Below are positions 791-45,514 of a stretch of DNA of 64,000 nt, piece after piece. The stretch is from NCBI RefSeq assembly GCF_006345805.1, contig NC_042998.1:130014001-130078000 (forward strand), written 5' to 3'. Position 1 is the first letter of the stretch; each line of letters opens with the position of its first letter. The stretch comes from Octopus sinensis. Taxonomy: Eukaryota. Below the pieces are notes generated by a model, which saw nothing but the letters and a program-made list of their open reading frames with translations, ran no database searches and had not been told where the DNA came from. A program made the translations under genes and the position numbers.

Positions 791-974
791 AGCGAGAAAG
801 ACCCATCCACAGATATATATAAAAACACACACACACACACAAAATAAGACTAAAGCTGTCGCTGATTAGCTCCAAGAAGCCATCGCCTCTAGCTAGCTAT
901 ATGACACACGAACCTGCGTCCATTACAACCTTCGAACAGGGGAAGTCAGCCCCTTCACCTTGCTAGTCAGACAT

Positions 975-1015
975 CTGCAGACATGTTTCAGGGTTGTTGC
1001 CCTTTATCAATGCAG
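975..1015 (-). ncRNA. Minimal type I hammerhead ribozyme motif, U3-A8 core variant
   Basis: Minus strand reads cugca-UUGAUAA-AGGG caacaa CCCU-GAAAC AU GUC-ugcag: 5-bp stem I, perfect 4-bp stem II, palindromic ACAUGU stem III, GUC cleavage triplet. Confidence 0.75.
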
Positions 1016-1293
1016 CGTAGTCAGAACCAGCAGGTGTCGCTACTGACCGTCTGTTCGAAGATTTTATTTATCTAGTTACAGTGGAATACATCCACTTGTT
1101 TTCAATAATAGAAATATTAAAATTACTAAGTCCCTGTAAAGGAGATAACGGCAGCGTTACTGGATATTAATAGTTATCGCCATACTAATATGGCAGTCTA
1201 TAACTATAAGACTAAAGCTGTCGCTGATTAGCTCCAAGAGGCCATCGCCTCTAGCTAGCTATATGACACACAAACCTGCTGGTTCTGACTACG

Positions 1294-1334
1294 CTGCATT
1301 GATAAAGGGCAACAACCCGGAAACATGTCTGCAG
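1294..1334 (+). ncRNA. Second copy of the U3-A8 hammerhead motif
   Basis: ctgca TTGATAA AGGG caacaa CCCG GAAAC AT GTC tgcag; one mismatch at the base of stem II. Confidence 0.7.
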
Positions 1335-1500
1335 ATGTCTGACTAGCAAGGTGAAGTGGCTGACCTCCCCTGTTCGAAGGTTGTAATGGACGCAGGTTCG
1401 TGTGTCATATAGCTAGCTAGAGGCGATGGCTACTTGGAGCTAATCAGCGACAGCTTTAGTCTTATATTTATAGACTGCCATATTAGTATGGCGATAACTA

Positions 1501-1538
<38 letters not shown>

Positions 1539-1554
1539 TTTATTTTATAGAAGG

Positions 1555-1605
1555 AGCTTCTACAGGACTAGAACTGTTTCATTCAAAAGAAATCATCAGG
1601 AAGCT
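1555..1605 (-). ncRNA. Type I hammerhead ribozyme motif
   Basis: Minus strand: agcuuc-CUGAUGA-uuuc uuuu gaau-GAAA CAG uucuaguc CUG UA-gaagcu. Canonical core, 6-bp stem I, extended stem III, GUA triplet; U-U mismatch at the base of stem II. Confidence 0.8.
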
Positions 1606-1651
1606 CCTGATGATTTCTTTTGAATGAAACAGTTCTAGTCCTGTAGAAGCT
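1602..1651 (+). ncRNA. Mirror copy of the hammerhead motif (stem I with one bulge)
   Basis: agctc CTGATGA tttcttttgaat GAAA CAG ttctagtc CTG TA gaagct. Confidence 0.7.
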
Positions 1652-1736
1652 CCTTCTATAAAATAAATTAATTTACTCTGCTATGTATTGAGTACCTTAT
1701 TTACTGTGGTTAACCCCGACTCAACCCGGGACCTAC

Positions 1737-1768
<32 letters not shown>

Positions 1769-1929
1769 TACATGAGGGGGTGATACACACACAGAGATAC
1801 ACCACACACACACATACACTGTCTCTCCCTCTTTCTCTCTCTCATATATATCATAATATTACATCCTTTAAAATGTATTAAATATATATAAATTGTGTGC
1901 AGTTTACTTCTTTTGTTATATATTTTTTT

Positions 1930-4892
1930 TCACTACAACTCACTGCGTGAGGAAAATTTCTTCAACGAAATTCCTTTTTACTGCACGTGAAACTGAAAAT
2001 GATGTCGAAGTAAATCACAAACACACTGGATAAAATCACCAACAAGGACATACTGAAAGAATTAAAAGAAATTAGCTCAAGTCTAGCCATACTAATTAAC
2101 AAAATCGATAAATTACAATTGATGTAGCCGAGAAACAACTGAAAATGAACAGTGAAGGCAAGTTACAGAGAAGATTAGTCAAAATTTAAACCAACTATGC
2201 ACAATCTTACACCTAATTTTTGCAAACAGTTTTGAAAAAGAAAAATCCTCAAATTACCAAGCATACAATGAAAATATACCAATCAGCACATCTAATTTAA
2301 ATCCGCATTAACCGTATTTGGACCAAAAATCTAAACGCTAGGAAATTTACATTTTCGAGCATCATTGAAAATAATAATAAGGCAGAAATACACGAACTAT
2401 GGATGAACTCAACACCGTTAATTCTTCCACGCAAACTACAAATCAAACCAATCCCCGAAGAGCCCGAACAGCAAAGATAACTTAGGGAGAAATTAACGGC
2501 AGAAAAAATGAAATCAGAAATTGAGATACTTAAACCACGCGCATCGACCAACGAACAGAAATATAAATCCATTGATGAAGACATGCGTATCGAATTCACT
2601 AAGCGTGCTGACGAACAGCTCTTGGAAAGTGTTCTCAAAGTATGAAAAGAAAGGTCTATATTTGAAGAAATAAATTCTCTTCAACGGTAGGGAAAAAAAT
2701 ACTAATTTTCTTTCAGTTATGAAACTCAGTTCAAAAGAGAGTACAGTTCAGATAAATAATCTAGAATGAAAACATAGAAATGAATAAACAACCGATTAGA
2801 TCAAACTATACACATCCATAGAGAAAAAAAAACGCCAGCACATAAAACTTGGAAATAAACCGTTTTCAAACTAGGAATAGGGACACCTCACAAATAAGAA
2901 ATACTAGAAGAAACCATCCCAGAGTTAGGAATATTAATTTTTCTCCACGAATTAGAAACGTCCAGTGGACTACATTTAAACCTCAACGAAGAAACTCGAA
3001 CCACGTAATCCCAACAAATTTACCCAGACAGCAAACCCAGCCTCCCAACAATTCAAATATAATTAATAACACTAAAAATCTATATCAACGTAATTACAGC
3101 AAACGGCTTTTTTTAGATCCAGTGCAGAGAAACAGTTTCACACGTTGCAACAAAACATACAGGAGAAACCCAGTGTAATGAATTTATCTAAGAAATCTCC
3201 CTCAGCAACAAAAATCTACATACTTCCAAAAGGATTACATTTTATTTAACCCCACGCAGGACGAATCAGAATGAAATTAAAGGTAATACTACGGAATTTT
3301 GCAGAAAACTACGATGTAGAGAAGCTTTAAATGACTACAACAACGAGGTTGAATGACTGGTCAATTATCTTCCACGTAAAGGCAGGAATAAAATACTAGA
3401 TGACTTCTGCGACCATATCCTGAATTTCCCCGAATACTTTGCACAAGCGAATACAAACCTCAACAATATAGAATGAAAAAGAAAATCTAATTGAGCTGAA
3501 AAACAACAAAAAATCTGACAATCCAAGAAGCCGACAGAGGAAGTGCTATAGTCCTCGTGGACATAGAATACTACAAGCACCAAGTACTTTCCATGTTAGA
3601 AAACAATACCTTGTACGAAAAAGTTGAAAAGTATAAACAACAAAAAACAATGAAATATCTTTCATCCTTAAATTATCTACAAGGAAAGGGTCTGAGAGAA
3701 AAAGAAATAGATTATATCACTAATTTTAAATGTAAACCTAATCTTTTCTACGGCGTACCTAAAGTACACAAGAGCCAGATAATTAATGAAGTCTGGAAGT
3801 AATCACCAGGCATATACTTCACTATCCAAGCGCTAGAAGATTATAGATGGGCCAGCGTGTGAAACCCACCATCTAAGCAAGTTTCTAGATATCATACTAA
3901 AATCTATTTTGAAATACATCAAACGTTAAATTAGAATCGATCTAGATATGCTAAACCACTTATCAAAAACAATTAGTGAAGCGACAATTATGGATTCCTT
4001 CGATGTTGGTAATTTAAAGTCCAATATCCTACACATCTATGGAATAGAAGCAATCAAATTGTGGCCGGAAAATTATCGCGAAGAACTTCCAGAACGCATG
4101 AACCAGGATTTGTATTAACTTTATTATTGAAACTCTAAAAGTTATCCTCCAGAACAATTACGTTTTATGTGATGACACGCACTACCGAAAAAAATGTGGA
4201 ATTGCGATAATAACGAAAGCAGCCTCAGTTCTTGCGAACCTAATAACGGGATATTTACAGTTAAACATATATGAAGTATCTCTACAAAAATATAGATACC
4301 CATTATATCATCATAAAAGAGAGAACTGGAAAAAATATATGGATAACTTTCTCATTTTTTGGAATGATACCATTGGTACATTTTCGAATTTAAATTATTA
4401 CTAAATAGTATAAATACAAATATTCAGTTTGTAATGGCGAACAGCAAAACACAACTCCCATTCCTAGATGTATTCATAAAAATAATGTCAACACCTAAAG
4501 AGAAATTGATATCTACCATAAACTAACGAAGTCGAAGGAATATATTCTGTTTAGTTCATGCCACTCGAAACATACCAAAACAAATATTCCTGTTAAATTA
4601 GCGAAAATGTCTGTTGCAAATACTCGGGACTTTCGACTTCAAACCTCAGAAAAACACTAGCCGAGAGACACTATCCACTCTCACTTATAGACGATGGAAT
4701 TAAGCGTGCCAAGAAAATAGGCATCAAAGCACTAAGCGAAACAAAACGGATTCCAACACCTCATCTCGAAATAATACCCTATATATCGACACACAACCCT
4801 GGAAACAATGAGGTATATAACACCTCTATTCCAAATCTACCAATGCTCACTAGGTATCCAAAGATGAATCACATTCTACAAACACAGAAAGT
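1930..4892 (+). pseudogene. Decayed Penelope-like retroelement reverse transcriptase ORF
   Basis: Frame-broken PLE RT motifs in order: IQEADRGSAIVLVD (about 3522), FYGVPKVHK, GPACETHHLSKFLDIILK, SFDVGNL, ASVLANL, WKKYMDN, LPFLDV, IYHK...FSSCHSKHTKTNIP, HYPLSLI, PYISTHNP. The 5' boundary is approximate. Confidence 0.85.
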
Positions 4893-5640
4893 CGTCATGA
4901 CCCTATATGTTGTGATCCTGAATTCGGCAGGGGACATATGGCCCGTGGTGCCAGCCTTGGATGAACCTTGACGCTAATGTTCAGGTCGTTTGGGCAATGC
5001 TGCTGGTATATTCTCCACATCTTGCAAATCATGTAACTCTCGCTGCGGCGCTAGAGAGAGTAGAATTTCAAGGTTTTAAGGCGGTCCCACTAATCGAGAT
5101 CAATCATGCCTTTAATTCGTCTAGTGAGTGCCCTATGGGGTGATTCGATTTTCGAGATGTTTTGTTTTGTATGCGGAGACCGCAGGGGGTAGCAGTATTC
5201 GAGGTGGGGCATACAAAGGTGGAGAATAGTGGAATCCAGCTGAGATTATTATTATCAACAATTACACCTAGGTCTCTTATATTATTAGATGCTGTGAGCG
5301 GTTCCCCTGAAGGAAGAGAGTATGGCTGTTTTAGTGTAGTCTTTCTTCCAAAATGCGATAGCTCAAATTTTCCTCGTTTAGTTGCAGTTTGTTTTTGTCT
5401 GCCCATTGACTCACCGCATATAGATCAGACTAGGGTTAAGTTCGATCTTCTTCATTGATGATATGCTGGAGCTTAGAGTCATCAGCAAATATTTTAACTT
5501 TGCAGTGATTTACGACGCTGGAAAGGTCGTTTATGTAGATTATAAAGAGGAGCAGGCCTAAGACAGTCTCCTGAGGGACACCACTGGTGATTTTTGCTGG
5601 GCTTGAGTGGACTCCATCAACCACAACATGTGTGGTCACC
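4893..5640 (-). mobile_element. CR1/L2-type LINE RT fragment interrupting the PLE
   Basis: ORFs with SGVPQETVLGLLLFIIYINDL, IFADDSKL and IRDLGVIVD..LSW; frameshifted. Confidence 0.8.
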
Positions 5641-5899
5641 CATAAAAAAATCTCAAAAGAAATAAAACAATCATTTACAAATCACTCAACGAGAAAACAA
5701 AAGTACATGAAACGATCACTCAAGAAAATGTGGGAAAATGTTTAAGGCTCTTGTGGGCCTTTAAAGACTACATAATGAGGGGAAACAGCTTTGCGACGAT
5801 CGAAGAGCGAGCCAAAAGAGCGAGCCAAGGACCTTTCCACAAGGTCCTTTCAACATGAAAATCTACTCATGATCCCTACATACCTTGGTCGTAGGGTCA

Positions 5900-6560
5900 T
5901 AAAAATAAAAATTAAAAATGTGCTCCCTGAAATTGAAATAAAATGACTCGTGTCTGCCATTTGCTATGATATCAAGGACGAAATTCATATATAGGAAATC
6001 GTTGTCCTGGACCAGTAAAACTGGATTGCCCAGGGAGTCGAAATTCTTGCCCAAATCGATCCAGCGAATTTTGAAAAAACTTCCCCACCGAATCTTATTT
6101 ATGGAGGATTCGAGCTTGCATGTAGCTATCGAAAGTAGAAAGCCACGTTGCTATGTTTGTGGTAGCAAAGCACACTTAAAAACTAACTGCGCACTAGCAC
6201 AGAAACAACAATAACAACAACGACAACAACAAGACCACAAAAAACAACGACCACAAGAAAACCAAAAAGCGAGCAAAAAACCAGAACTACTACCCACACC
6301 GCCATATGCACAACTAATTAAACAGATCTACAAACAAATGAAGGAACATCAGCAGGCAACAAGCCATTCAAACCAAGCAACATCACCTCCAGCGCCACCA
6401 AAAACAGAACCAACACCATCATCAGTAACTCCAAAGGAAGAAGAGGAAAACAAAAAGACTCATACCCCACCCTCAAAAACTCAAACACCAAATCCCAACT
6501 GTCACCAAGAATGTCTAAACAAGGAAAATTATGTTCGTTAAAAAGTACAGACCACACCTT
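5900..6560 (+). pseudogene. Gag/ORF1-like remnant with CCHC zinc knuckle and Pro/Thr/Lys-rich tail
   Basis: CYVCGSKAHLKTNC = CX2CX4HX4C in ORF 5966-6214, followed by low-complexity ORF 6338-6541. Confidence 0.5.
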
Positions 6561-6894
6561 GAAATACAACCTTGACCACTTCAAAAATTATACTTAGGAG
6601 TTAGTAGCCCTCTCCCCTTGCCACCTGTTGCCTCCCTTGACGCATACTTCTTTGTCAAGTTGAAAAGCTATTTTAGATAACGAAGACCGGTTGGATATCA
6701 CGACATACATAAAATATTTATGCATTAAAAAAATTTCTTTATAAAAAGATATTAATCTATGTGAAACGAAGGCATTTTCCACTTTTTAAAAGTGTTTCCC
6801 ACATATTTTCAACTCATAATTTTGCCACGTGGTGTATACTGAATCTCCAGTATTTTGGTCCTTTTGTACTTTTATATTTTTCTTATATACACAT

Positions 6895-6957
<63 letters not shown>

Positions 6958-7681: not shown

Positions 7682-7722
<41 letters not shown>

Positions 7723-8254: not shown

Positions 8255-8296
<42 letters not shown>

Positions 8297-9139: not shown

Positions 9140-9445
9140 GCTAGCTATCGGGCGGCTTTTCAGCTAGCTCTTGTGAAGGGCTCTTCATTGTGCCTTGGGC
9201 CCAACAATGACAATTCATGCAATGATTACATATTACATTTTATTGATCAAGATTACAACTTGATCAAGATTTTTCAAGCAATGAGAAATTTTCATTAAAA
9301 CAATGATATAATTTGTCGACTTGGAACTTATTGCAAAGCTAAAGTGATAATCAACGTTCTTTGTCTTCCCAGTACAATTTTTTCTGTCTAACCTCCTTTT
9401 TTCCTTCTCTCTCTCTCTCTCTCTCTGTACATATATATATATATA

Positions 9446-9795
9446 TTACATACATGCATATACATACACACATATATATATTACATACATGCATATACAT
9501 ACACACATATATATATTACATACATGCATATACATACACACATATATATATTACATACATGCATATACATACACACATATATATATTACATACATGCATA
9601 TACATACACACATATATATATTACATACATGCATATACATACACACATATATATATTACATACATGCATATACATACACACATATATATATTACATACAT
9701 GCATATACATACACACATATATATATTACATACATGCATATACATACACACATATATATATTACATACATGCATATACATCCATACATATATATA
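9446..9795. repeat. 35-bp minisatellite, 10 copies (2 more at about 9936-10005)
   Basis: Unit ttacatacatgcatatacatacacacatatatata at 9446, 9481, 9516 ... 9761. Confidence 0.95.
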
Positions 9796-9886
9796 TATAT
9801 ATAATATATATATATATATGCTGACCATTGATAATTTTTTTTTCGGCAAAAAATGTTATCCTACATTAGTTGTATATATTATATAT

Positions 9887-9920
<34 letters not shown>

Positions 9921-9996
9921 ATATATATATATATATTACATACATGCATATACATACACACATATATATATTACATACATGCATATACATCCATAC

Positions 9997-10028
<32 letters not shown>

Positions 10029-10038
10029 ATATATATAT

Positions 10039-10078
<40 letters not shown>

Positions 10079-10084
10079 ATATAT

Positions 10085-10974: not shown

Positions 10975-11161
10975 TATTCATATCAATGCATATTTAAAAA
11001 AAAAAACTCTATATCACAATTTTTACCCAAAATACCGTCAGAACACGCATTTGATAGGCTAAACTTGTACAAATGAAATATATGACCGCCTTTAAAGTAT
11101 CATTAGTCTTTCGAAATTATACATACATGTATATAAGTTTGTGTGTGTGTGTGTGTAGGCA

Positions 11162-11209
<48 letters not shown>

Positions 11210-11404
11210 TGCCTACACACACACACACACAAACTTATATACATGTATGTATAATTTCGAAAGACTAATGATACTTTAAAGGCGGTCATATATTTCATTT
11301 GTACAAGTTTAGCCTATCAAATGCGTGTTCTGACGGTATTTTGGGTAAAAATTGTGATATAGAGTTTTTTTTTTTTAAATATGCATTTGATATGAATAGA
11401 CATA
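10969..11404. repeat. Near-perfect 436-bp palindrome centred on (TA)n
   Basis: Arms of about 195 bp differ only by two homopolymer indels; the ORF track gives the same peptide on both strands (11073-11279 +, 11092-11298 -). Confidence 0.95.
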
Positions 11405-13943: not shown

Positions 13944-15084
13944 GATATATATATATATATACACATATATATGTACATATCTATCTATGTATATATGTAT
14001 ATATATATATACACACACATATATATACATACATATATATATATATATGTATATATATTCACACACACATATATATACATATATATATAGGTATATATGC
14101 GTACACATGCACATAACACCACAGATAAATGTAAATATCAAAATATTTTTCTGTTATCGCTTGCCAGTTGACTTTGTAAAATTTCTTTGACCACATTTGA
14201 GTCATATTTATCTCCACCTTACTATCCTTCGGCTACAGCTTTCCTCAAAATACAAGATATTCCATCTGAGTATATCTGATTTATAACTCTATTGATTTTC
14301 TGATAATGTTTTGACTACTTAGGCAATATTTTCACATTATACTGTTGGATTTGCTTGCTGGGAATTATTGAATTTGGTATCTGATTCGGTTAGCTAAACT
14401 GTCTTCAGGTTTTTGTGATGGTTTTTAAAATTTTATTTCGCTTAAATTAATATTTTTCACTTCTTTGTTTTAAGTATCTAGTTTCATATTGTGTGCATAC
14501 GTATATCAATACCATTAGTTATGTAATGGGGCTACAACAAATCGTATATCTTCTTGCCAATATTTTTCGCAGATTTTTTTTTCTTTTAAAAAGAAAAGAA
14601 AATTTAATATTTATCCTAGAGCTCTTTGATATCTGTTAACCAAAATTTTTAACATAATGTTGCTTCTTATATCTTCACTAGATACTGCAATATTGTGACA
14701 CATCAAACATTAACCAACACTGGTCTCTAATACTGGATAAGAGAATATTTTTCAGAGTGAGACACAATCTATCAGTCCAGTAGTTGACCAATACCAATAT
14801 TTTGGTCCATATTTGAAATTACATAATTAACTGCTGTAAGACTTTACTCGCATGTTCCAGCGATTTTGTCAAATTACTACTCGTATTCTTAGCTCAGTAA
14901 TTTATTTAAATATATAGGTACTAAGCTTAAGACGTGGGGAAGTGACATAGTCAATATCACTGATCCCAGTACATGGCTGTTAATCTATTTTATCTATCCC
15001 AAAAGGGTGAAAGACAAATATAACGGGAACTGAACTACAAAAACTATGAGTCTGAAGATAATGCAAAGCATTTATTTTTGATTA

Positions 15085-15311
15085 GGCGGCGAGCTGGCAG
15101 AAACGTTAGCACGCTAGGCGAAATGCTTAGTGGTATTTCGTCTGCCGTTATGTTCTGAGTTCAAATTCCGCTGAGGTCGACTTTGCCTTTCATCCTTTCG
15201 GGGTCGATAAATTAAGTACCAGTTACACACTGGGGTCGATGTAATCGATTTAATCCCTTTGTCCTTGTCTGTTCCCTCTATGCTTAGCCCCTTGTGGGAA
15301 ATAAAGAAATA
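15085..15311 (+). mobile_element. Full-length tRNA-derived SINE with 20-bp TSD, nested in an older opposite-strand SINE (about 14915-15355)
   Basis: ggcggcgagctggcagaa head, B-box-like gagttcaaattcc, gcctttcatcctttcggggtcgataaattaagtacc core; TSD gcaaagcatttatttttgat at 15063-15082 and 15312-15331. Confidence 0.9.
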
Positions 15312-17479: not shown

Positions 17480-20238
17480 CAGCAAACAAGCAACGCTACT
17501 AAGCAACAAAGAGAACAAAAATGCTCCGCAAATATAACATCACAGAAAAAGATTTGCCGGAGATAAAAGAAAAGCTGAAACAAGATATCCTTGCCAAAGC
17601 TCAAAGGATCCACCGGTACGAGAAACGCCAACGCTTCTTTGAACAGAACAAAAAGTTCAACTCTGACCCCAAAATGTTCTACCAAGAACTGGGCAAAAAT
17701 AATATAGAAGTCACTGCAGCACCAACGGCAGAAGAATTGGAAGAATTCTGGAGAGAAATATGGTCGGCGAACGAACAGCTAAAAAAAAGGAGTATGAAAA
17801 TAACAAACTCGGCATCTGAACAAATTTGGACCCCCATAACAACTGAAGAGGTCACCCAGGCACTGCAAAAACTAAGCAACTGGAAGGCACCTGGGCATGA
17901 CAAGATCCCCACTTCTGGTTGAAATATCTAACAGAATGCACAAAAGCTGGCTGAAAACTTTAACAGCATACTAGCAGAGCCAGAGACAATGCCTGAATGG
18001 CTCACGAAGGGGAAAACCATCTTAATTCCCAAATCAAATGAAACAACAAAACCAGAAAACTACAGACCAATAACCTGCCTCCCTACTATGTTCAAGGCAT
18101 TTACTGCAGTGATATCGCAAAGGCTGAACAAGCACCTGGACGAAAACAAACTGTTCCCAGAAGAGCAGAAAGGATGCCGCAAGGGCTCATATGGCTGTAA
18201 AGATGAACTAATGATTAATAAAGCCGTAACTGAAGACACCACAGAAAGAAGAAAGGCCTCAGTATGGCCTGGATTGACTACAAAAAGGCGTTTGATAGCA
18301 TCCCCCACACATGGATCCTCGAAACACTAGCCATTAACAAAGTAGCACCAACAATCATAAAATTCATAGAGCACTCTATGAATAAATGGCAAACAGTCCT
18401 ACACCTCCAACAAAAGAGGGACTCATGAAAACCAAAGACATCCCCATTGGAAGAGGAATATTCCAGGGAGACACGCTCTCTCCACTCCTTTTCTGCTTGG
18501 CACTGTCACCTCTATCTGATATGCTAAATAGAAATGGATGCGGATATAAATGTTACGGCAAAACGATCAGCCACCTTTTATATATGGATGACCTAAAACT
18601 ATACGCTGCAAATGACAAACAGCTGGAAACACTATTAAAGACAGTTCATGGATTTACCAAAGAAATAGATATGAAATTTGGACTAGAAAAATGCGCCAAA
18701 GTAACCATGAAAAGAGGAAAACTAGTTAAGAGTAACAACATCACACTAGATAAAACCAATGAAATAAAAGAATTAGACCAAAGCCAAACTTACAAATACT
18801 TAGGAATCCATGAACTAGATAGGACACAACACACACAAATGAAAGACAAAATAAAAAAAGAATATTATAGACGTGTTAGATCAATACTAAAAACAGAGCT
18901 CAATGCTAAAAACAAGATAATAGGTATCAACACTTTAGCTTTCCCAGTTATAAGTTACAGCTACAATATCCTTAACTGGACACGAAAAGAACTGTCCAAA
19001 ATAGATAGGAAAACAAGAAAAATACTGACAAGATCTAGGATGCATCACCCAAAATCTGACATAGAAAGACTATATATACAACGTATAGAAGGTGGTAGAG
19101 GCCTTATACAGCTGGAAAACTACTATAAAATAACCACCATAGGACTGCAAAAATACCTACTTCAGAAGGAAGGAAAACTGATACAGATAGCAGCAAAACA
19201 CGAGCAAAACAAAAAAAACTGTTCTCAGTATTTAAGGAAGCTGACAAATACAAACAATAAATCATACCACCTAATAAACACAAAGAAGAAGAAGAAGATG
19301 ATGAAGAAACAACAAAAGCTATAAAACAAATGAAATCCAAACTAAAAATAGAACAGCAACGAGCCATGATAAAACGATGGCAAGAAAAACCCCTTCATGG
19401 TAAATACTGCACTAAACTAAACGCAAAAGAAATAGACAAAGAAAAATCCCAGCAATGGTTGAGAAGCTCAGGACTCAAAGCAGAAACAGAAGGATTTTTA
19501 ATTGCAGCACAAGACCAAAGCCTCCCCACCAGAAATTACCAAAAACATGTAATGAAAAGAAATATTACAAGTAACTGCAGAATATGTGGAGATGGACAAG
19601 AAACAATAAATCATATTATCTCTAGCTGCCCAGTCCTGGCTAAGAAGGAATATATTCACAGACATGACAGAGTTGGAACCTACATACATTGGAAGCTATG
19701 CCAACATTATGGAATAACAACAGAAAAAAGATGGTATAGGCACACACCAGAAAAGGTCACAGAAAACGAGAAAGCAACCATAAACTGGGATATGCCGATA
19801 CACAGAGATAGAGAAATTAAGGCCAACAGACCAGATATAGTTGTCAGAGATCATGCAGAAAAAAATGCTTTCTAATTGATGTATCAATACCGGCAGATGA
19901 CAACGTGTCTCTAAAAGAAATGGAGAAACTCTCAAAATACAAAGACCTGGAAATAGAGATAACTAGAATATGGAACCTGAAAACAGAAACAATTCCTATC
20001 ATAATAGGTGCATTAGGCATGATAAAAAAATATTCAGACAAATACATAACAAAAACACCAGGACTTACAAACACATATAACATACAGAAAATTGCAATAC
20101 TAGGCACTGTATAAATCCTACGCAGAACACTTTCCATACAATAACCATCAGAGCATCACAACAAATCACAGCACATACCCAAGGCACACAGGGCTGCGCT
20201 CGGTAGTGAAGTGAAAGCACGCTATAAAAATAATACTA

Positions 20239-20314: not shown

Positions 20315-20476
20315 CTCTTTTACACGTTTCAATCATTTGAATACAGCCATGCTGGAGCATGCAGTAGCACCTTTAGTCGAAGAAATCGACCTCAGGGCTT
20401 ATACTTTGTAAGCCTAATACTTATTCTATCCATCTCTTTTGATAAACCGTTAAGTTTCGGGGACATAAACATACCA
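20315..20476 (-). mobile_element. SINE body fragment cut off by element C
   Basis: gccatgctggagca...tttagtcga...aagcctaatacttattctat...ggggacataaacatacc, homologous to 590-790 and 44120-44330. Confidence 0.65.
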
Positions 20477-21434
20477 AATGCAGAATATGCATTTCATGTT
20501 CGTCAATGCAACAAACTCAAGAAATATAAGAAAAAACATAACATTACAAACTCGATAGCCAACCGTAGAATTCGTCGTAGCATGTACGAATGTTTATCCT
20601 TACATATCTATGAAAATGGCGGGCTTTTTCGCAATGCATTTCGGTAACAAATTGCCTAGTCGGAATAAAAATTCAGTATTGAACTATTCCAGTGAAAAAT
20701 ATAAATTAACAATTGAGGATAAAATCTTTAAAAGAAATTATCAGTAGTCAGCGTGAAAAACCTCGTAAGAGAAAAAATCCGTAAATTCTTCCTCTTTGAA
20801 AATATTCATTTATATTATATTGAGGGTACTACCACTATTCGTAGATACCAACACGCTAAGAGGGACCAATGCAGTCAAAACTACTAAAAATAAACAAAAT
20901 TTTACCGAATAGTGGTAGTACCCTCAATATAATATAAATGAATATTTTCAAAGAGGAAGAATTTACGGATTTTTTCTCTTACGAGGTTTTTCACGCTGAC
21001 TACTGATAATTTCTTTTAAAGATTTTATCCTCAATTGTTAATTTATATTTTTCACTGGAATAGTTCAATACTGAATTTTTATTCCGACTAGGCAATTTGT
21101 TACCGAAATGCATTGCGAAAAAGCCCGCCATTTTCATAGATATGTAAGGATAAACATTCGTACATGCTACGACGAATTCTACGGTTGGCTATCGAGTTTG
21201 TAATGTTATGTTTTTTCTTATATTTCTTGAGTTTGTTGCACTGACGAACATGAAATGCATATTCTGCATTAAATGCAAAATCACATGTGATATGTAACTG
21301 AATTCTTTTTTTAAAATGATGTGTTTTGAAGTTTTGCATTCGGTAAAATTTTGTTTATTTTTAGTAGTTTTGACCGCATTGGTCCCTCTTAGCGTGTTGG
21401 TATCTACGAATAGTAGTAGTACCCTCAATATAAT
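20477..21434. mobile_element. Hammerhead-bearing element C, 501-nt monomer with fold-back inversion
   Basis: gtaccctcaatataatata recurs with period 501 (ccctc at 20921 and 21422). 20477-20910 is an inverted, circularly permuted copy of 20906-21434. The sense end runs into (TA)n. Confidence 0.8.
21237..21268 (+). ncRNA. Minimal type I hammerhead-like motif (inverted copy at about 20479-20510 has C3>U)
   Basis: tgca-CTGACGA-a ca t-GAAA tgcatat TC-tgca: canonical core, 4-bp stem I, vestigial stems II and III, palindromic ATGCAT. Confidence 0.55.
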
Positions 21435-21856
21435 ATATATATATATATATATATGGAGTTAAACGCAGTTGTTATTGAAATCTTTATAATTTCGACATAT
21501 ATGCAGTAATCACATTCGGTTAAAATGACTTATTGATGCGTTTGTTTCTTTTTTTTCTGAGAGGATTGCATTGTTTTACATCATTTTATTCTTTCTCGAA
21601 TAATACTGATGTTTTCTCGAAACATCTGTCGTAAGTATAGAGATTTGAATAACACCTGCGTTTAATTCCCTTTATTTATTTATGTGATATAAAAACATTT
21701 CACCAAAACCTGGAATTTCTACCTTTATAAGTAGGCTGTTACATCCTTGGTACTTATGTGAATTTTTGCTACCCTGCTAAATATTTATTTACTTTATCCG
21801 TGTTATATATAAACATTGAAAAAATACGCATACATACATACATACATACATACATA

Positions 21857-28550: not shown

Positions 28551-29129
28551 CTTTTCTACTCTAGGTACAAGGCCCGAAATGTTAGGGGAAAGAGTCAGTC
28601 AATTAGATCGACCCCAAAACGCAACTGGTACTTAGTATATCAACCCCAAAAGGATGAAAGGCAAAGTCGACTTTGGCAGAATTTGAACTCAGGACGTAAG
28701 TACAGATGAAATACATATTTATTTACTGCCCACAAGGGGCTACACACAGAGAGGACAAACAAGGACATACTAACGGATTAAGTCGATTATATCGACCCTA
28801 GTGCGTAACTGGTACTTATTTATTGACCCCGAACGGATGAAAGGCAAAGTCGACCTCGGCGGAATTTGAACTCAGAACGTAGCGGTAGCCGAAATACCTA
28901 TTTCTTTACTACCCACACGGCGCTAAACACAGAGGAGACAAACAAGGAGAGACAAAGGGATTAAGTCGATTACATTGACCTCAGTACGTTACTAGTACTT
29001 AATTTATCGGCCCCGAAAGGATGGAAAGCAAAGTCAACCTCGGTGGAATTTGATCTCAGAACGTAACGGCAGACGAACTACGGCTACGCATTTCGCCCGG
29101 CGTACTAACGTTTCTGCCAGCTCGCTACT
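28551..29129 (-). mobile_element. Head-to-tail SINE trimer in one 18-bp TSD
   Basis: Three Deu/Nin-core units; TSD ttgtg(g/a)catcgataaaat at 28533-28550 and 29130-29147. Confidence 0.85.
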
Positions 29130-30008: not shown

Positions 30009-30213
30009 TTTTTCTTTATTACCCACAAGGGGCTAAACATAGAGGGGACAAAGTATTAAGTCGATTATATCGACCCCAGTGCGTAACTGGTACTTAATTT
30101 ATCGACCCCGAAAGAATGAAAGGCAAAGTCGACCTCGGCGGAATTTGAACTCAGAACGTAACGGCAGACGAAATACGGCTACGCATTTCGCCCGCCATGC
30201 AAACGTTTCTGCC
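30009..30213 (-). mobile_element. tRNA-derived SINE with 19-bp TSD
   Basis: TSD agactcccaagataatata at 29990-30008 and 30214-30232. Confidence 0.9.
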
Positions 30214-33200
30214 AGACTCCCAAGATAATATAGGTGATTAACATATCGTGCAGGTTATTCCAGTCAGACGCAGTCATCCCATCTGTTTCACACAAATATA
30301 TTCAATGTGTTCTTCCTGTTCTCCAACACCTGTGCGTGGTTTATCTGCTATTTCTGGCATGTCGAGTTACAATATATACGATATTCGTTAATCAAAATAT
30401 TGGGTGAGCTAATCTGCAAAATGTCAGGTCAAAATGCAATGCTTTATTACTTAAATCTATCTTTTTTCTGTCTAGTAATAGTCTCTGCGCGGTCAACGTT
30501 GCTTTTCACTCCCCCATTTTGACAGGATTATTTTTTTATCAGTTATAGTCTGCAGATGAGTCAGTTCTCTCCCCCATGTGCACTATAGCAGTTATAGACT
30601 TGGGCCATTGTAATAAATTTTCAACAACAACAATAGTTGTATGGTAATGATTATAATTGTTATTTTATTATTTGTATTCGCTTGTTTTTGTTCTTTACTC
30701 TATTATTATATTGTTGCTGTTCTTTTCCATTTGACAACGTATAATGGCAATATCTTGTTCATGGAAATTACTCATGGAATGAATAACTTTGCTTTATATT
30801 ATGGCTATTGATTTTATCTGAATTGCAGCTGGCTGACTATAGAGACATTTGTCGTTTGTTGTCATGAACGTCACAACATACATTTGCATTCCTCTACACA
30901 TGGAATGGTGAGTGCATAATTTATAAAAGAAATCAATATTGTTCCATATTGTACAGTATCACACAGGGCTAAATCGATACATCACCGAACACTGAGTTCG
31001 AATTATGGTCCCAAAGCGTGCCAACTAGAAGAGAGTCCCATTATATATATTAGCGATATTTAGAGTTTATTCAGTAGAGTAACTCTTTTATGTACCACTG
31101 AACATTTTGTCTTCGTATATAGATTATTGTCTTGGATTTATTGGAATGTCTATTCCACGTCTACAAACCCTGTAAGTTCAGTTTTCGGTATTTTCTGTTT
31201 ACTCTTTCAGTACTTCTAGTAATTAGAAAGTTGAATTATGTGATTAGGATCTGTATCACAACCACACTACACACTACGATAGAAGTAACGATACACAAAT
31301 GTGTGTATTGCCAAATCAAGTCTTGGACAGGCTGTCGGCTCCATTATTGTCATGTCAGCATAATGTCTATACAGCCAATTGTATATAAGTAATACGAATA
31401 GTAAAATATCAACTCGTGCAATTGTAATATATTTGACATGGAAAGATTTGCATGGGGATCGATCCTTCAGGTGATTTCTATTTCGTGAACCAAACTTCAT
31501 CATTTAGGGTGGTTGCCTCAGTCCACTTTCAAACTTACTTTGATATTATATGTGGTTTCATTCAATATTTCATAGTTATATTGACCAGTTTCTTACAATT
31601 CCGATATTAGAGAGAAACAAGTCAATGCCAGAAGATTCTGGGATCAACCATCTCAGCAACAAGTATTTCGTAAGTGTAAGTTTAGATTTTACATACTAAG
31701 ATTGTAGAAGATAAAAAAATGTCATTCAATTACATGAATTTTTAGTCCTCATAATTTCTTCGTCTACTCGATAGCAACCGCTGACTTTATATATCACACT
31801 TATTAGTTTATGTCAGAATTTGGTTTTTCCTCACCGACTCAGTTCAACAAAAGTTTCCTTGCGTTCCAGATTTTATGTTTCCTAATTAATTGATATCATT
31901 ATTGTTTTTGTTAGCTCTATGTTGCAACAAAATAAAAGGGAGTCTATTTTACAGTCAGTCTTTTACTTTGATATAAATAAAGCACTCGAAACAAATTTAA
32001 AGGTCAGAAATTTAGATTACCATAAAACTATAGATATATAGAAAGAGAGTGAATGTGAGAAAAATTGTGAGGCATTGTGGTCGGAAAACTCAAGCACCAG
32101 ATTAAATATCGAGGTTATTTGGGTTTTCTCTTCCAAATTTTTACGTCTTCAACTTGAATTTCATTCCTTCCAGACCAAAGCGCGACGGATAATTAAAAAA
32201 ACTGATTTTGTTTCAATGTGATAAATGCACATCGGATTTCAGTATGTGTGGATATCTGTAGGGAAAAAGCTCAGCATTTCAAGTCGTAACATTTATAATA
32301 CCAGGAAAGTTAAAATTACGGCGAATCTATTTGCAATTAAATTTGCAAGTACAATGACCAAATGGATAGCTATTAAATTACTAGCTCATAAAAGAATACT
32401 TCAAATCAAATTGGGCGAATCATTGTATTCCTAAACTGTATATTTTAATGTGTTGTTGAATTAACGCAGCTCTTGGGAAATGACTTTTGGAAATACTTGG
32501 CCAATTACAAACAATAGACTATACTCTACAGATTTTATTTGCGATTTTCTCTTCTTATATCTCTTAGCAACAAATCACCAGGTGTAGTGGTGTGTACCTT
32601 GTGCATCGGATTTCCATTGAGTCTGTGATTAAGATAACACTCAAATAACACGGGCCCACTGTCTGAAAATAATCACAACAAACTTGAAACAACATGTAAC
32701 TTAAAACAACAGTAATTTAATAATGGCAAATGTCTCGTTACCTTGCAGTGCTTGTTTCAAATCTTGAAATGAATTGCAGAGAAATGTGATGCACACAGTT
32801 CTATAGTACCTCAACTACGCTGAATCTAGGATTTGAAGTTTCTTTTCCGTTATAAGTAGTAAAGAGGATTTACTATAACTCTTACGCATAGTTATAGAAA
32901 CCAACAAACCAAAGTGCTAGGCTTTTGCATTCAATTAACCTGATGCAAATCGCAAGATTTCCCCTATATGTCAGGTGGCTATTTCCTTCTTCAATGTCAG
33001 ATAAAGAAAGATGCATCCGATATTGTTGTCTGTGATATGTTAATAGGTACGAACACAAGGGCTAGAACTCATTTCATAAGTAAAGCTCAGTAAGAATTGC
33101 CCTTGGATTAAACAACATAAACAACAGCTGTGCAAAGAAAGTATAAGCACTAAATTACATGACATAGTGTGTTTTCTAAAATCGTTCTTGGAATTCGTAG

Positions 33201-33304
33201 ACAATACAAGCGTGTATATTCTTGTTACTAAATTCCATGTAATTCCTTATCTAGGTGTCACATAATCGAAATAATGTTTGGTTATATCGTCCAAATATAA
33301 AAAG

Positions 33305-33556
33305 CAGCGAGCTGGCAGAAACGTTAGCACGCCGGGCGAAATGCGTAGTTGTATTTCGTCTGTCGTTACGTTCCGAGTTCAAATTCCGTCGAGGTCGACT
33401 TTGCCTTTTATCTTTTCGGGGTCGGTAAATTAAGTACCAGTTACGCATTGGGGTCGTGTAATCGACTTAATCCGTTTGCCTGTCCTTGTTTGTCTCCTTT
33501 GTGATTAGCCCTGTAGAAAAAAAAAAGAAATAAAGAAAGAGGATAGTAAAGAAATA
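33305..33556 (+). mobile_element. tRNA-derived SINE with 18-bp TSD
   Basis: TSD tatatcgt(c/t)caaatataa at 33283-33300 and 33557-33574. Confidence 0.88.
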
Positions 33557-38263: not shown

Positions 38264-38300
<37 letters not shown>

Positions 38301-38304
<4 letters not shown>

Positions 38305-38567
38305 CAATTGAGGATAAAATCTTTAAAAGAAATTATCAGTAGTTAGCGTGAAAAGCCTCGTAAGAGAAAAAATCTGTAAATTTTTCCACTTTGAAAATAT
38401 TTATTTATATTATATTGAGGTTACTACTATTCGTAGATACCATACGCTAAGAGGGACCAATGCGGTCAAAACTACTAAAATAAACAAAATTTTACCGAAT
38501 ACAAAACTTCAAAGCAAATCATTTAAAAAAAGAATTTTAAATGATTTGCTTTGAAGTTTTGCATTCG
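38301..38567 (-). mobile_element. Partial second copy of element C with its own short fold-back
   Basis: 38301-38535 matches 20706-20910 and continues as the reverse complement of 21340-21300; 38535-38567 inverts 38496-38527; abuts (TA)n. Confidence 0.85.
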
Positions 38568-38976
38568 TTATTTTCCTTGATCTACCATCGCAAATCAGTC
38601 AACGCTGTTGACTGACTTCTTCATAAAGCTATTGCTTTATAAGTTTGTTCAAAGTTGCATCTCCTATGTATACCCTATAGAAAGAATAAAAAAAAACTTG
38701 AGAAAACTCGATGTCTGGGATTCCTGATAGATTGCGACACTGAACAAACGGAGTGTTTTCAACCTAAATTTTGCTTATGCCTGAAGACTGCTTGGCGCTA
38801 ACATTTCATTATATACATATAAATTGTTTTAGTGGGATCCTCAGTGAGAGACTTGCTCCGCTGATTTCGTATCAGAAGGGATATGGAAAGTATTACTTGA
38901 GGATTTCACGAACGAGCCACACGATGATATTCACTTCAATTTGCGCATTTGGTTGATGTATTTATTTTTGCTACTA

Positions 38977-40249: not shown

Positions 40250-40565
40250 TAGATGTTGTCTGGGGGATATCAAACAGTATTTGAATTCTATATGCTTATA
40301 TGTATGTATCCATGGATGCATATACGTATGCATATATTTACATGTGTAGTATGTGGTATAACAGCGTGTGGGTGTTTATCTGTGTATAGACGTATGCGTA
40401 TATATATATGTGGGCGTGTCAGTGAGTGTCTGTACACATTTACATATGTATACATGTATATGGATTTTTGTGTGAGTGTTTACGAGTACACATATGTCTC
40501 TTTATGTATATAAATTATATATGCAACCATACATACTGGCATGCAAGCATACATACATATATATC

Positions 40566-40650
<85 letters not shown>

Positions 40651-42128
40651 GTCCGTCTCTCTGCCTGTCCGTCCGTCTGTCGGTCTGTCTGGCCGTCTAT
40701 CTGTGTATGCATGTATGTATGTATCTATCTATCTATCTACCTTATATGCATGTATATCCAGCCCATTCATGTGTGTGGGTTGGCAAGTGCTTTTTTTTTT
40801 GGTCTTGTTCACAAACAGAAGTACTCAATACATGACTTAGAGTTTCTATTGTTCTTTCAAAACTGATGAACCTCCTCTTTGTGCTCATCTTTCTCGCCTT
40901 CCTCAAGCGATGCATCCTGAAATATATCACTTTATATCTACATGTTTATTATTTGTGTAGCATTAGATGATGATAGCTTATCGTAGTTGTAAAATTCACA
41001 TCATTATTTAGTAGGATCTATATAATTGATTTACATATTTGGAAGGAATTGTTATCAAATCGCATGACTTATCAGAAATATCATCATGTATTTTCACTAC
41101 TGCCATAGCAACACTTCATCAAGATATTAAAATAATATAATAATGATAGTGGCATAATAATGATTATAATCATAATTATAATTATTGTTATTGCGTTTCC
41201 TGGTTTTATTGTTGTTCTTAGTAGATGCGGTGATGTTATTGGTGAAAGTAGAGGGGGTAGTAATGAAGGGGATGGTAATATTGTCATTCCTTAGCCTACA
41301 TACAATGATTATTGGAAGCGAATGTGTTGACTACTTCGCTCCAACGGCATTTCGAAATAATAATAATAATACTAATAATAATATTAACAACAATGGCAAT
41401 AATAAAAAAAAACACTATAATAACAATAATAACAAGAATTTCAGTATTCTGTTGATTACAGGATTTAATCTATGAATAGCTAGATGCTCAGTGATCAAAA
41501 TGAAACAATAGATTAGATGAGAATTGATAAGAAACAAATGGAAAATGTCGTAAATTTAAAACAAAACGACTTGATAATTTTGTTTATGTATTTTGTGCTT
41601 CTCTGTTTGGATATTAATTCAAATATTGAAGTTTGCTCAATAAATTGAAATTTCATTCAGATTCTATTTTATTTAGATCACTCACGCTCCTTCGCTTTCC
41701 CTATTATTCTCTCTCTCTCTCTCTCTCTGTTAATCTTTCTCTCAACCTCTAATTCTCACACATGCAAACATACATATGTGTGTGTGTATATATATACATA
41801 TATATATACATATATATATATGTGTATATATATATATAAGCATATATATATGTACATACACATACGTGTGTATATGAATACATACATACACACTTACACT
41901 TATAACTCAGTGTCTATGTATGTATAACTGTATGCACGTACGTACATACGTATGTATGTATGTATGTATGTATGTATGTATGTATGTATGTATGTATCTG
42001 TCTGTTTGTTTCTGTGTTTGCTTGCCTCTCTTTCTTACTTTGTGTCCATCTATCATTTGTTTTCACCTTATCACTGTCTTTATACAACTGGGCGTACATC
42101 CATGAATATGTGAGTGTGTGTATATATA

Positions 42129-42173
<45 letters not shown>

Positions 42174-43729
42174 TATATGTACACACACACACATATACGT
42201 ATATGTATATATGTATATGTGTGTACATGTATATCCCTCTGTAGGTATATGTGTGTATGTTCGTGTGTATCCGTGTATTTGTGTATGTATGTATGTGTGT
42301 GTGTGTTTTCTTGCTGTAGCTCTATCTCATTATATCATTTATCTGTATATTCATTGAACCTGTTCATCCCTCTTTATTTTTTGTTGCTGTTTTTGTAGCT
42401 CTCTCTCTCTCTCTGACTCTATAACGTCTTTTATTTTGCTGTTGTAAACATAATGCAGAACATTTAAAAAGTATGAAATATATTTTATAAGCAGGATTTT
42501 CAGTTTTTGTCTTCGTAGTACACTACAGTTCTGAGAGTTCACTTCGACATCTAAAGTTCCACCACCATCACCACCAGTTTTAACCTTCAACAAATTCTCT
42601 ACAAATTCTCTCTTCAAACCCATATACCATTTGGACTCAACAACCCCCACCGTCTAGTAACAACTTCCACATGTTTTTTTAATTTGTTAAATATTTTAAA
42701 TGTTTTATGAATTAAATTTTAATTTTTGATTTAATTTAAATTATTTTTTTATTTTTAATTCATCAACGCACACATCCACTCACACACATATGCATAGCTT
42801 GCACTCTCCACATATAACATACATATCTACCGCACACACATAGACACACGTACACACTCACACATACACGTGCACACACACATACGTTTCCATATCCTGG
42901 CATGTAAAAAATATCCTTCACACACATACACACACACACACCCCTACATACGCACTTATGCGCAGACATAAATGGACGCATATACGTAAACATACATCGC
43001 GCGCATATATACATACACCCGTAAACATGCACTCACCAACACTTATACATACACACACAAACACATACATATACACGCAGCAGCATCAAAGCACTCACAC
43101 ACTTGTCCCCTCGCCTCTCACCCCACCACCACCACCCACGCAAACATATACACTCTTACACACGCTCTCATACACATACGTACACATACAGTAACACCAA
43201 CCTACTCACGCATTTGTTACGTCACCTTTCACACCAATACACACACACGCGCAAACACACGTATACGTACAGGGACAGCGACACCAAGCATTCACACACT
43301 TGTCATCTCACCACTCACACATTCACACATACACATAAAAGCACACACACACATGCACACACACAAAGCTTAACACACACAGTAACACCAACGCACTCAC
43401 CAAATCTTACTGCGCTAACCTATCGGCACCATTTCCTTACACGCACACAGATACTATCACACACACTCACACACACAGATACTACGACACACGCACAGAT
43501 ACTACCACACACTCACACACACAGCTACTACCACACGCAAATACACACATACACACATTTTCGCACTCTCCAGCCTTAAAAACCCAAATATTTTTATCTC
43601 AGATGAATATGGTACTTAAGATGAGGCACCAGAATTTAGTACGGTATTATCCATACAATTCAAAATAGGGTGATTAAAATCAAATTAAGCCACCAGGATA
43701 ACCAGAGGTATATATATAAATATATATAG

Positions 43730-44054
43730 GGGGTGACCCTATGAATGAGTATGGGATTGCACCTAGAATGCTACCCTCCAAGGTAGAAGTCCGGGCAAGG
43801 TTGTTTATGGAAGGCTAGCAGTCGCCCATACATACCAGCCCTCTCTCTCCATGTCACTGCTTTTCCAAAGGAAAAGCAAAGGCCGATACAGCTTGGCACC
43901 AATGACATAGCAACTCTTTTCTACTGCCGAGTGAACTGGAGCAACGTGAAATAAAGTGTCTTGCTCAAGCGCACAACGCGCCGCCCGATCCGGGAATCGA
44001 ACTCACAAACTCACGATCGTAAGCTCGACGCTCTAACCACGGAGCCATGTGCCT
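43730..44054 (-). mobile_element. Second SINE family, full length with tRNA-like head
   Basis: Minus head ggcacatggctccgtggttagagcg...gagttcgattccc (A/B boxes), then cttgagcaagacacttta. Confidence 0.85.
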
Positions 44055-44073
44055 TCACACACACACACACACA

Positions 44074-44119
<46 letters not shown>

Positions 44120-44122
<3 letters not shown>

Positions 44123-44330
44123 TTATTTCTTTCAGTTATTTGACTATAGACGTAGTAGGGCTTCGCCGTGACAGGTTTTCGCCGTAGAAACGACCTCAGA
44201 GCTTATTTTATCAAGTCTAGTACTTATTATATCGGTTTCTTATGTCCAACCGTTAAATTATGGAGATGTAAACACACCAATATCGGTTGTCAAGCGGTGG
44301 TGGTGGACAAACGCAGATAAAAAGACACAC
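44120..44330 (-). mobile_element. Third SINE family body; a matching tRNA-like head lies at about 45515-45632
   Basis: agtacttatt.tatcggt...gtaaacacacca.atcggttgtcaagcg; head piece gattgaacccgaacccatgtggttgggaagc. Microsatellite and inserts separate the two parts. Confidence 0.6.
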
Positions 44331-44635
44331 ATACACATATATATCTATACACACACACACGTATATTTCATAGCTAGTAGAACCTCGAAATTAGTAATTA
44401 TCCAAACATGGGATAATTTGTTAGCTACACGTTGGGTCAAAAGTACCTTAATCAAAAGAAGTTACTTGACCCTTGGATCTTACGATTACACACACACGCA
44501 CACGCACATGCACACATGCACACATACATGCACGCACGCACACACTCACACATACACATACGCACACACGCACACACATACGTTCATGTATTTGTGTTTC
44601 AAGATTCCTGGTGTGAAGTCGTATGTTGAAACAGA

Positions 44636-44850
44636 TATTGCTGTATTTCGCGATGGTCATATTGTTTTTGCCAAATAAAAACACGGACTATATATTCGTT
44701 CTTCACTCGTTTATTATTGTTACATTTTAACTCATGATCGTTGATCGGACAATGGACATGAGTTAGAATAAGAACAGCAATGGACAAATGAATATAGTGC
44801 GTGTGTTTATTTAACAAAAAAGACAGTGACCAAACTGAAATACTACAATA
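44636..44850. mobile_element. Old foldback/MITE-like element ending at (TA)n
   Basis: Imperfect arms tattgctgtatttc..tggtca..aaataaaaacacggactatat / atatagtgcgtgtgtttattt..tgacca..gaaatactacaata; inner hairpin attttaactcatg / catgagttagaat. Confidence 0.55.
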
Positions 44851-44897
44851 CATATATATATATTTATAATCTCTCTCACTTATATATATATATATAT

Positions 44898-45514
44898 ATC
44901 AATACTAATAAAGGGTAAAATTAATTAATCAATTTATAATTAATAATCTTACCAAGTAGTTCCGTATGTTAAAAGAACCATTATCGGTAAATTTATACAA
45001 AAATTATTATAATTATAAACATAATTATAATTCAGGTTTAGCAAAATTGTTTCACCACATACCGAAATTTAGAAATAGCAGTTAAATACTATTCTACTAT
45101 CGTAAGATATCTCCCAGACATCAATACTCTCAACTCTCACAGGCAAAGAGGAAAAATAACGAATCCACCCGGCTTTGATTAACTATATATGCGTTTCTAG
45201 ATTAAAGATATGTAAGATTTCTCATACCTTATTTCCGTCATCAATATAGTATTTCAATAATAAATGTGAGAGCACTAGTAATCAAGATATCTATTCGGCC
45301 AAGTGCCATCGAATAAAATTAATATCCCAAAAACCAGTACTTCCGAATTCATACAGACGACTTAAGGCCCGCACCCTCTCCCAATCACCCGCGTGCGTTA
45401 CGAGTAATCCCGCAGAAACTGCAGTTTACTATCAGGGAGCGAATTATATTATCAACAATAATAAAGGGTAAAATTAATTAATAAATTTATAATTAATAAT
45501 CTTACCAAGTAGTT
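44898..45514 (-). mobile_element. Hammerhead-bearing element D, 553-nt monomer with about 65-bp terminal direct repeat
   Basis: taataaagggtaaaattaattaat...cttaccaagtagttc at both ends (ggg at 44913 and 45466); sense 3' end in (TA)n. Confidence 0.75.
45182..45250 (-). ncRNA. Decayed type I hammerhead motif with long stem II
   Basis: Minus: acuaua-UUGAUGA-[cgga...aagguaug / cauaucuu...ucua]-GAAAC GC A UA-uauagu. Perfect 6-bp stem I; two transitions away from CUGAUGA and GAAACGCGUA. Confidence 0.6.

Follow-up and report, generated by a model that had tools for sequence, protein, structure and literature searches.

A 64,000-nt stretch of the Octopus sinensis genome (contig NC_042998.1, positions 130,014,001 to 130,078,000; hereafter the window) carries four short sequences, A, B, C and D, which combine hammerhead or hammerhead-like ribozyme motifs with ends in (TA)n microsatellites. 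Analysis of these sequences and of their copies in the 2.72 Gb, microsatellite-rich genome indicates that A, C and D are quite probably dispersed non-coding families whose insertions have the ends of Penelope-like elements (PLEs) at (TA)n and which are likely copied in trans by a PLE protein combining reverse transcriptase (RT) and GIY-YIG domains, from an RNA that is likely circular or an uncleaved multimer, B being the 3' terminus of a Hydra-type PLE. The initial annotation of the window had presented all four as a single guild of non-coding hammerhead elements that self-cleave to monomers and are copied by a PLE protein at TA repeats.

Self-BLAST of the window reproduced the annotated coordinates of A, B, C and D and the periods of the three tandem elements, with 844-917 matching 1206-1279 in A (period 362), 20906-20945 matching 21407-21446 in C (period 501) and 44891-44965 matching 45445-45518 in D (period 554). 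The four sequences are as dissimilar as had been claimed, the top BLASTN matches among them being 16-18 nt long (E 0.06), and comparison of sequences and folds made no common tail sequence or fold evident. All three annotated PLE relics were also recovered (Table 1). The statement that ribozyme-sense 3' ends run into (TA)n is correct for 1507, both ends of B, 21434, 38301 and 44898, and incorrect at 844 and 20477, where the left arms of A and C have 3' ends that do not lie in TA. A generic repeat search of the window gave output dominated by microsatellites.

Genome-wide, the exact core pattern was found at least 200 times for A, 5,293 times for B, 212 times for C and 30 times for D, and never for the reversed controls. 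Copy ends were mapped on 47 arms from 27 loci of A and 34 arms from 23 loci of C, both position-ordered, and on 41 arms from 29 loci of D, an older and more diverged family sampled by best hits, with monomer positions counted from the first core base. The periods recurred across loci (about 362 nt for A, about 497-498 for C and 540-557, or about 553, for D). Within each family the 3' ends gathered at a short and a long site, at positions 209 and 268 in A, 203 and 306 in C and 251 and 353 in D: 36/47, 31/34 and 34/41 arms, respectively, ended no more than 5 nt from one of the two, where 2.9, 1.5 and 1.6 were expected. These hot-site ends adjoined (TA)5 in 30/36 (A), 30/31 (C) and 26/34 (D) cases, compared with a background of 424 of 9138 window positions (4.6%). 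Both sites are themselves TA-like in A, C and D; they lie 59, 103 and 102 nt apart, respectively, and about 70 nt apart in B. The 5' ends of A, C and D were scattered round the unit.

Arms longer than one unit made up 18 of the 47 in A, 13 of the 34 in C and 12 of the 41 in D, the longest spanning 2.74, 2.1 and 2.01 units, and a C trimer stood among the listed core hits. No long arrays occurred among the first 100 listed core hits, where at most two (A) or three (C) hits stood in tandem. The position-ordered copies of A and C mapped wholly on the unit, with the unit's own tail upstream of each hammerhead, and no long flanking body was common to the 30 loci that matched A, C or D best. No stop-to-stop frame of 120 aa or more exists within A or D, and the edge of C is overlapped by one 134-aa frame whose start lies in a microsatellite. 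The description of non-coding, circularly permuted, over-unit, TA-targeted elements stands for A, C and D, and not for B.

The predicted cleavage sites left no mark on these copies. No 3' end lay within 5 nt of the predicted cut (monomer position 31 in A) among the 47 A, 34 C and 41 D arms, with 1.4, 0.8 and 0.8 expected; the corresponding 5' ends numbered 2, 1 and 0, without excess over the same expectations, and 35 A, 27 C and 30 D arms read through the cut. Since copies end off the predicted cut and read through it, the copied RNA was no linear cleaved monomer, and the copy ends lend no support to the proposed self-cleavage to monomers. The template was a circle or an uncleaved multimer, between which these data do not choose. 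As circles, the consensus units folded much better than 40 shuffles (z -7.2 for A, -3.9 for C and -8.7 for D). Between the tandem units of one arm, no fixed difference was recurrent (the maximum was 6 of 55 A arms), and such units were more alike than copies from separate loci in A (3.7 vs 5.5%) and D (7.2 vs 12.0%). Contigs from four runs guessed to be RNA covered all 28 bins of the A unit and joined its end to its start, as tandem DNA or read-through RNA would do likewise.

Several further sequences were seen in passing. Contigs of run X10, whose species label differs from that of X1, X4 and X11, covered family A (window 844-1205), which suggests that this family is probably common to related species. 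Diverged relatives of C and A at TA tracts (L198:2830-3267, L048, L054) point to more families than the four listed here. At L222:2436-4927, where the direct period is about 540 nt and nested inversions have 97-99% identity, lies an unrelated unit that is another candidate permuted family.

The hammerhead motifs proved unequal. A strict type I descriptor, run on the window and on 30 shuffled windows, the latter giving one hit in all, detected only A (1010-, 1299+) and B (1599-) in the window, B having a canonical core with an 8-bp stem I. The boxes of C (CUGAYGA-ACAU-GAAA) and D (CUGAWGA-CG-GAAA) have no helix II, its place being taken by 4 and 2 nt, respectively, and stem I is imperfect in both; the window copy of D moreover carries T at core position 3. 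The claim of one type I hammerhead per unit holds for A, is not confirmed for C and D, and does not extend to the 38301-38567 piece of C, which lacks a box, or to B, which passes the descriptor and is no unit. The motifs are nevertheless conserved: mismatches numbered 18/924 in the core of A against 1136/28702 in the rest of the unit (p 5e-4, inflated by related copies), 2/418 in the boxes of C against 1.5% elsewhere (p 0.05, copies not being independent) and 17/360 in those of D against 9.1% elsewhere (p 1e-3, with the same dependence among copies). A relative of C about 30% diverged (L198) has kept the first box and the 4-nt linker, its second box being altered. The CG linker of D is self-complementary, as in engineered dimeric minizymes. 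None of the 150 matches listed, out of 270, in an Rfam scan of the window was to a hammerhead family; the matches were mostly microsatellite hairpins. We regard the motifs of C and D as hammerhead-like. The U3-A8 core variant of A and its palindromic helix III have precedents in PLE hammerheads (PMC4209133).

Evidence on how the insertions were primed comes from pairs of inverted arms joined 5' to 5', classifiable where each end lies at a known site. Of 60 such pairs from all four sequences, 59 combined one short and one long site: 20/20 in A (34 pairs in total, 14 with an end off both sites), 17/18 in C (25 in total), 7/7 in D (8 in total) and 15/15 in B, where 'short' denotes simply the absence of the tail. 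Because same-site pairs amounted to 1 in 60, where independent choice would give about half, the two strands appear to have been primed in a coordinated way, and we infer that this took place most simply on one RNA. Most arm junctions overlap by a few nt. Classical L1 twin priming was considered and rejected, as arm coordinates overlap instead of abutting. That PLEs have a tail at only one end has been described (Craig et al. 2021, PMC8557442). In vitro, the tail covers the interval from one internal RT start to a second (Frangieh et al. 2024, PMC11167929), and in the same system a protein with a predicted dimeric form cuts and extends both target strands (PMC11167929).

B belongs to a longer element. 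Its best hits were only 200-nt palindromes, suggesting a fixed palindromic unit of about 200 nt; this candidate was rejected, as 20 of the 30 distinct position-ordered arms continue 5' into a common CA/TA-rich untranslated region (UTR). Position-ordered hits also formed opposite-strand pairs up to 6 kb apart. Upstream of the CA/TA-rich sequence lie RT pieces (L297, L307) and a 229-aa open reading frame (ORF; L302) with the Hydra motifs CxCX5C, CxxC and CxH, no CCHH, and a C-terminal endonuclease. L302 and L305 are contiguous, leading from the ORF through about 2.5 kb of repeat-rich UTR to the B hammerhead, the tail and (TA)n. The 3' UTR of this parent measures 2.5-3.5 kb, mostly of CA/TA microsatellite-like sequence (L302:509-1195 with L305; L211, L213), and alone exceeds the 'generally under 3 kb' of Hydra elements, which is a typical, not a strict, feature; the canonical hammerhead and the insertion at (TA)n are as in the Hydra clade. 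The remaining 10 of the 30 arms terminate at the hammerhead or close to it, and several junctions have the AGCT palindrome of stem I at their centre, so that the hammerhead motif marks a truncation hot spot. The recovered sequence of the parent lacks the 5' part; the homologue P0001, with 38% identity across 83% of the query, has the N-terminal motifs RWK and DKT. Judged by this sequence context, B is the 3' terminus of a Hydra-type PLE and not a free-standing monomer. The four-member guild thus falls, B being the end of a protein-coding PLE with fixed 3' ends, an outcome that the initial annotation had itself named as speaking against its proposal.

The Hydra-type family includes the youngest PLE copies observed. 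The 3' UTR of one copy contains an antisense D-related insert (L213, about 1900-2120), and these microsatellite-rich UTRs may seed dispersed compound microsatellites in the genome. At L156:1042-1630, a two-armed insertion joins D-related sequence (72%) in sense and directly to the B hammerhead and tail, possibly by a template switch between a D-like RNA and a Hydra RNA, or by nested insertion.

Neptune-type PLEs, with a CX4CxxC linker and with GIY-YIG at the C terminus, are numerous in the genome. Most of 12 Neptune-type 3' ends stop in (TA)n, and 7 of the 12 contain a hammerhead-like core in which A3 pairs with U8; in L285, L286, L287, L289 and L295 these UTR cores, missed by a CUGANGA search, combine A3-U8 with a palindromic stem III, one also having a perfect 7-bp stem I. 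The sole likeness of this kind to A was found in the PLE at L223, which has a U3-A8 core and ACAUGU as in A. Pfam detected GIY-YIG in the Neptune-type protein at only E 0.006 and gave no support for the Hydra endonuclease; the clade assignments are based on motifs. Either the Hydra-type or the Neptune-type PLE could be the helper of A, C and D.

To account for these insertions, we propose that a PLE protein would bind the unit near its two fixed internal start sites and cut both strands of a TA tract. Each target strand would prime at one of the two sites, aided by TA-like microhomology, and each cDNA would extend for a variable length, through the hammerhead and round the unit, until short overlaps unite the two cDNA ends in an inverted pair of which a single arm carries the tail. 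The unit is probably delimited by the hammerhead, which would nevertheless stay uncut in the copied template. Copying by a PLE at TA, as initially annotated, finds support for A, C and D in their inverted and tailed PLE-type insertions and in the TA-targeting Neptune-type and Hydra-type PLEs of the genome. Several observations weigh against this scheme. BLASTN of A, C and D with 13 Neptune-type PLE 3' ends and the Hydra UTR gave no match apart from the antisense D-like insert in the latter, and none of the three showed homology to any PLE pseudo-long terminal repeat (pLTR) examined. In vitro, the starts of PAc were not homologous to the cut DNA and, in bulk, did not differ between strands (PMC11167929). 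C and D do not pass the strict hammerhead descriptor, one D subfamily has G at the cleavage position, and in C divergence is equal within arms and between loci (2.0 vs 2.0%). Finally, the D sample and part of the A and C samples are best BLAST hits and not random copies.

With regard to the template, we have a slight preference for a circle over an uncleaved multimer. The seamless over-unit copies without long arrays among the first 100 hits, the paired circular folds and the lack of recurrent tandem differences favour it; the incomplete hammerheads of C and D, and a within-arm divergence in C not below that between loci, are neutral or contrary, as are the published observations that PLE hammerhead mutants still insert, that uncleaved RNA is the main substrate in vitro (PMC11167929) and that 8 of 9 Xenopus retrozyme dimers stayed uncleaved in vitro (bioRxiv 10.64898/2026.07.22.740005). 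A strict retrozyme cycle for all three families, in which multimers are cleaved by their hammerheads and ligated into abundant circles that serve as the sole templates, would go further. It draws on seamless read-through to 2.7 units with so few tandem hits, on the circular folds, on the conserved core boxes (with p values inflated by related copies) and on the circles demonstrated in coral, mussel and axolotl (PMC7229834); set against it are the absence of helix II in C and D, the single dimer of nine predicted in Xenopus that was cleaved in vitro, and the insertion of hammerhead mutants, and we hold it to be possible but doubtful.

Uncleaved read-through transcripts of genomic copies of 1.5-3 units, comparable to solo pLTR tandems, could alternatively be the template, the hammerheads being largely vestigial and template jumps, driven by homology, restoring the length. 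The absence of copy ends at the predicted cut, the dominance of unprocessed RNA as PLE substrate in vitro (PMC11167929) and the incomplete motifs of C and D all agree with such transcripts; yet they require a lengthening step, should have left the recurrent unit-specific variants of a few master tandems, which are absent, and do not explain the conserved boxes, so that we lean against them. A combined proposal, in which a PLE dimer would prime both strands on one circular RNA at the two fixed sites, this twin-priming rolling circle explaining tails, inverted arms and partial tandems, while C and D would be helix-II-less hammerheads cleaving only as dimers, seems rather unlikely. It is very improbable that A, C and D are the termini of longer autonomous PLEs whose bodies were missed: B sets a precedent, best hits having given short copies and position-ordered sampling the long element, but the position-ordered copies of A and C lie wholly within the unit and have only the unit's own tail upstream of the hammerhead, D having been sampled by best hits only.

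A, C and D, non-coding and likely copied in trans, closely recall the non-LTR retrozymes of metazoans, which likewise are non-coding AT-rich units with head-to-tail type I hammerhead boxes and sizes within the reported 51-972 bp, co-occur with PLEs and are proposed to be mobilised by them (Cervera and de la Pena 2020, PMC7229834; Li, Clavereau and Pollet 2026, bioRxiv 10.64898/2026.07.22.740005); in Xenopus, 24 of 57 retrozyme families match known transposable elements, nearly all of them PLEs (bioRxiv 10.64898/2026.07.22.740005). Head-to-tail multimers and the lack of a protein are common to A, C and D and foreign to B, whose parent encodes one. With its type I hammerhead and at least 200 exact core hits, A makes a good predicted member of the non-LTR retrozyme-like class; C and D appear to behave like such units but fail the strict ribozyme test. 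Unlike the known arrays, the copies of all three are partial tandems of 0.2-2.7 units dispersed in TA tracts, with inverted arms and tails; none showed homology to the pLTRs examined, and C and D have no helix II. The insertions share with those of PLEs (PMC8557442, PMC11167929) the 5' truncation, the inverted 5' copy, the tail at one end, two internal RT starts and AT-rich or (TA)n targets, but the tails here are 59-103 nt long (30-40 in known cases), the start sites are TA-like, and pairing was counted per insertion (59/60) on ORF-less templates. Minimal PLE hammerheads (Cervera and de la Pena 2014, PMC4209133) show U3-A8 covariation, a palindromic helix III fit for dimers and opposite-strand pairs 100-700 bp apart, and a circular template was already proposed for them; the described forms keep or lengthen helix II, whereas helix II is absent from C and D. 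Non-autonomous Chlamys elements, MRC1 among them (PMC8557442), are also non-coding PLE dependants with pLTRs and multicopy head-to-tail insertions, but their 3' end resembles that of the autonomous partner, a match not seen for A, C and D. As for B, its parent shares with Hydra-clade PLEs (PMC8557442) the C-terminal endonuclease, the CxCX5C linker, CxxC, CxH, the lack of CCHH, the canonical hammerhead and the (TA)n target, and differs from these generally <3 kb elements by its 2.5-3.5 kb microsatellite-rich 3' UTR and its thousands of young terminal fragments.

In the literature searched, as distinct from Repbase, Dfam and supplementary family lists, there was no report of these families or of start-site pairing per insertion. 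A search of PMC13282606 gave no match for ribozyme, retrozyme or Hydra. The class and its link to PLEs are already published (PMC7229834; bioRxiv 10.64898/2026.07.22.740005), and what is new are the families, the insertion footprints and the pairing count per insertion.

Table 1. Families A, C and D, sequence B and PLE relics in the window (window coordinates).
Feature	Coordinates	Strand	Details
Family A left arm	844..1279	-	1.2 units of the 362-nt monomer; 3' end at monomer position 171, off the hot sites, adjoining (TG)n
Family A hammerhead	975..1015	-	Core U3-A8; stems I and II of 5 and 4 bp; ACAUGU palindrome as stem III; cut predicted after GUC, between 980 and 979
Family A right arm	1274..1507	+	Ends at position 209, the short start site; stem II of the hammerhead copy at 1299 carries one change
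(TA)n target common to A and B	1504..1535	.	
B left arm	1539..1608	-	Type I hammerhead, intact (1607-1553), with stems I and III of 8 and 3 bp; ends at short 3' site
B right arm	1600..1737	+	5'-truncated 3' terminus of Hydra-type PLE with ~70-nt tail; stem I 5' strand disturbed by inversion junction
(TA)n at long end of B	1737..1770	.	
PLE relic	2436..4896	+	
Family C left inverted arm	20477..20910	-	3' end at monomer position 30, against another repeat (20372-20477)
Family C right arm	20906..21434	+	1.07 units; ends at short site (203) in (TA)n
Family C hammerhead-like core	21241-21261	+	4-nt linker replacing helix II; palindromic AUGCAU
Family C fragment	38294..38570	-	3' end enters (TA)n at 38301; includes a short inversion and lacks a hammerhead box
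Family D copy	44898..45514	-	1.13 units; ends at long site (353) in (TA)n
Family D hammerhead-like boxes	45244-45225	-	2-nt linker; 3-8 pair broken in window copy
Hydra-type PLE RT relic	49664..49978	-	tblastn E 4e-7 with P0001, E 2e-4 with RT piece of B parent
PLE thumb/endonuclease relic	59276..60040	+	Weak similarity to Neptune-type proteins, E 3e-6

Other repeats also populate the window. A near-perfect 193-bp inverted repeat without spacer is centred on (TA)n at 10993-11378, and a 35-nt minisatellite of TA/CA units occupies 9431-10084 in near-identical copies. Two broken RT elements of the long interspersed nuclear element type lie at 17503-19875 (+) and 61161-62320 (-), both with RVT_1 and the first also with zf-RVT, and a Tc1/mariner-like relic at 51796-53434 has 233-nt inverted repeats at 93% flanking a DDE_3 fragment (52236-52733). 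Copies of a repeat of about 180 nt, resembling a short interspersed nuclear element, were found at 28597-29081 (a 2.6-copy tandem of period 183), 15072-15273, 30036-30215, 33301-33456 and 47165-47352.

The case of B cautions that short hammerhead palindromes in TA tracts can be PLE termini. For A, C and D, the insertion footprints provide direct genomic support for the mobilisation of retrozyme-like units by PLEs, until now argued from co-occurrence and pLTR homology. The question of how PLEs come to insert in tandem, inverted and tailed form is open (PMC8557442), and short ORF-less units with all three features offer minimal templates for an in vitro PLE system, while the short/long rule observed in 59 of 60 pairs makes a sharp prediction for the sequencing of single insertions.

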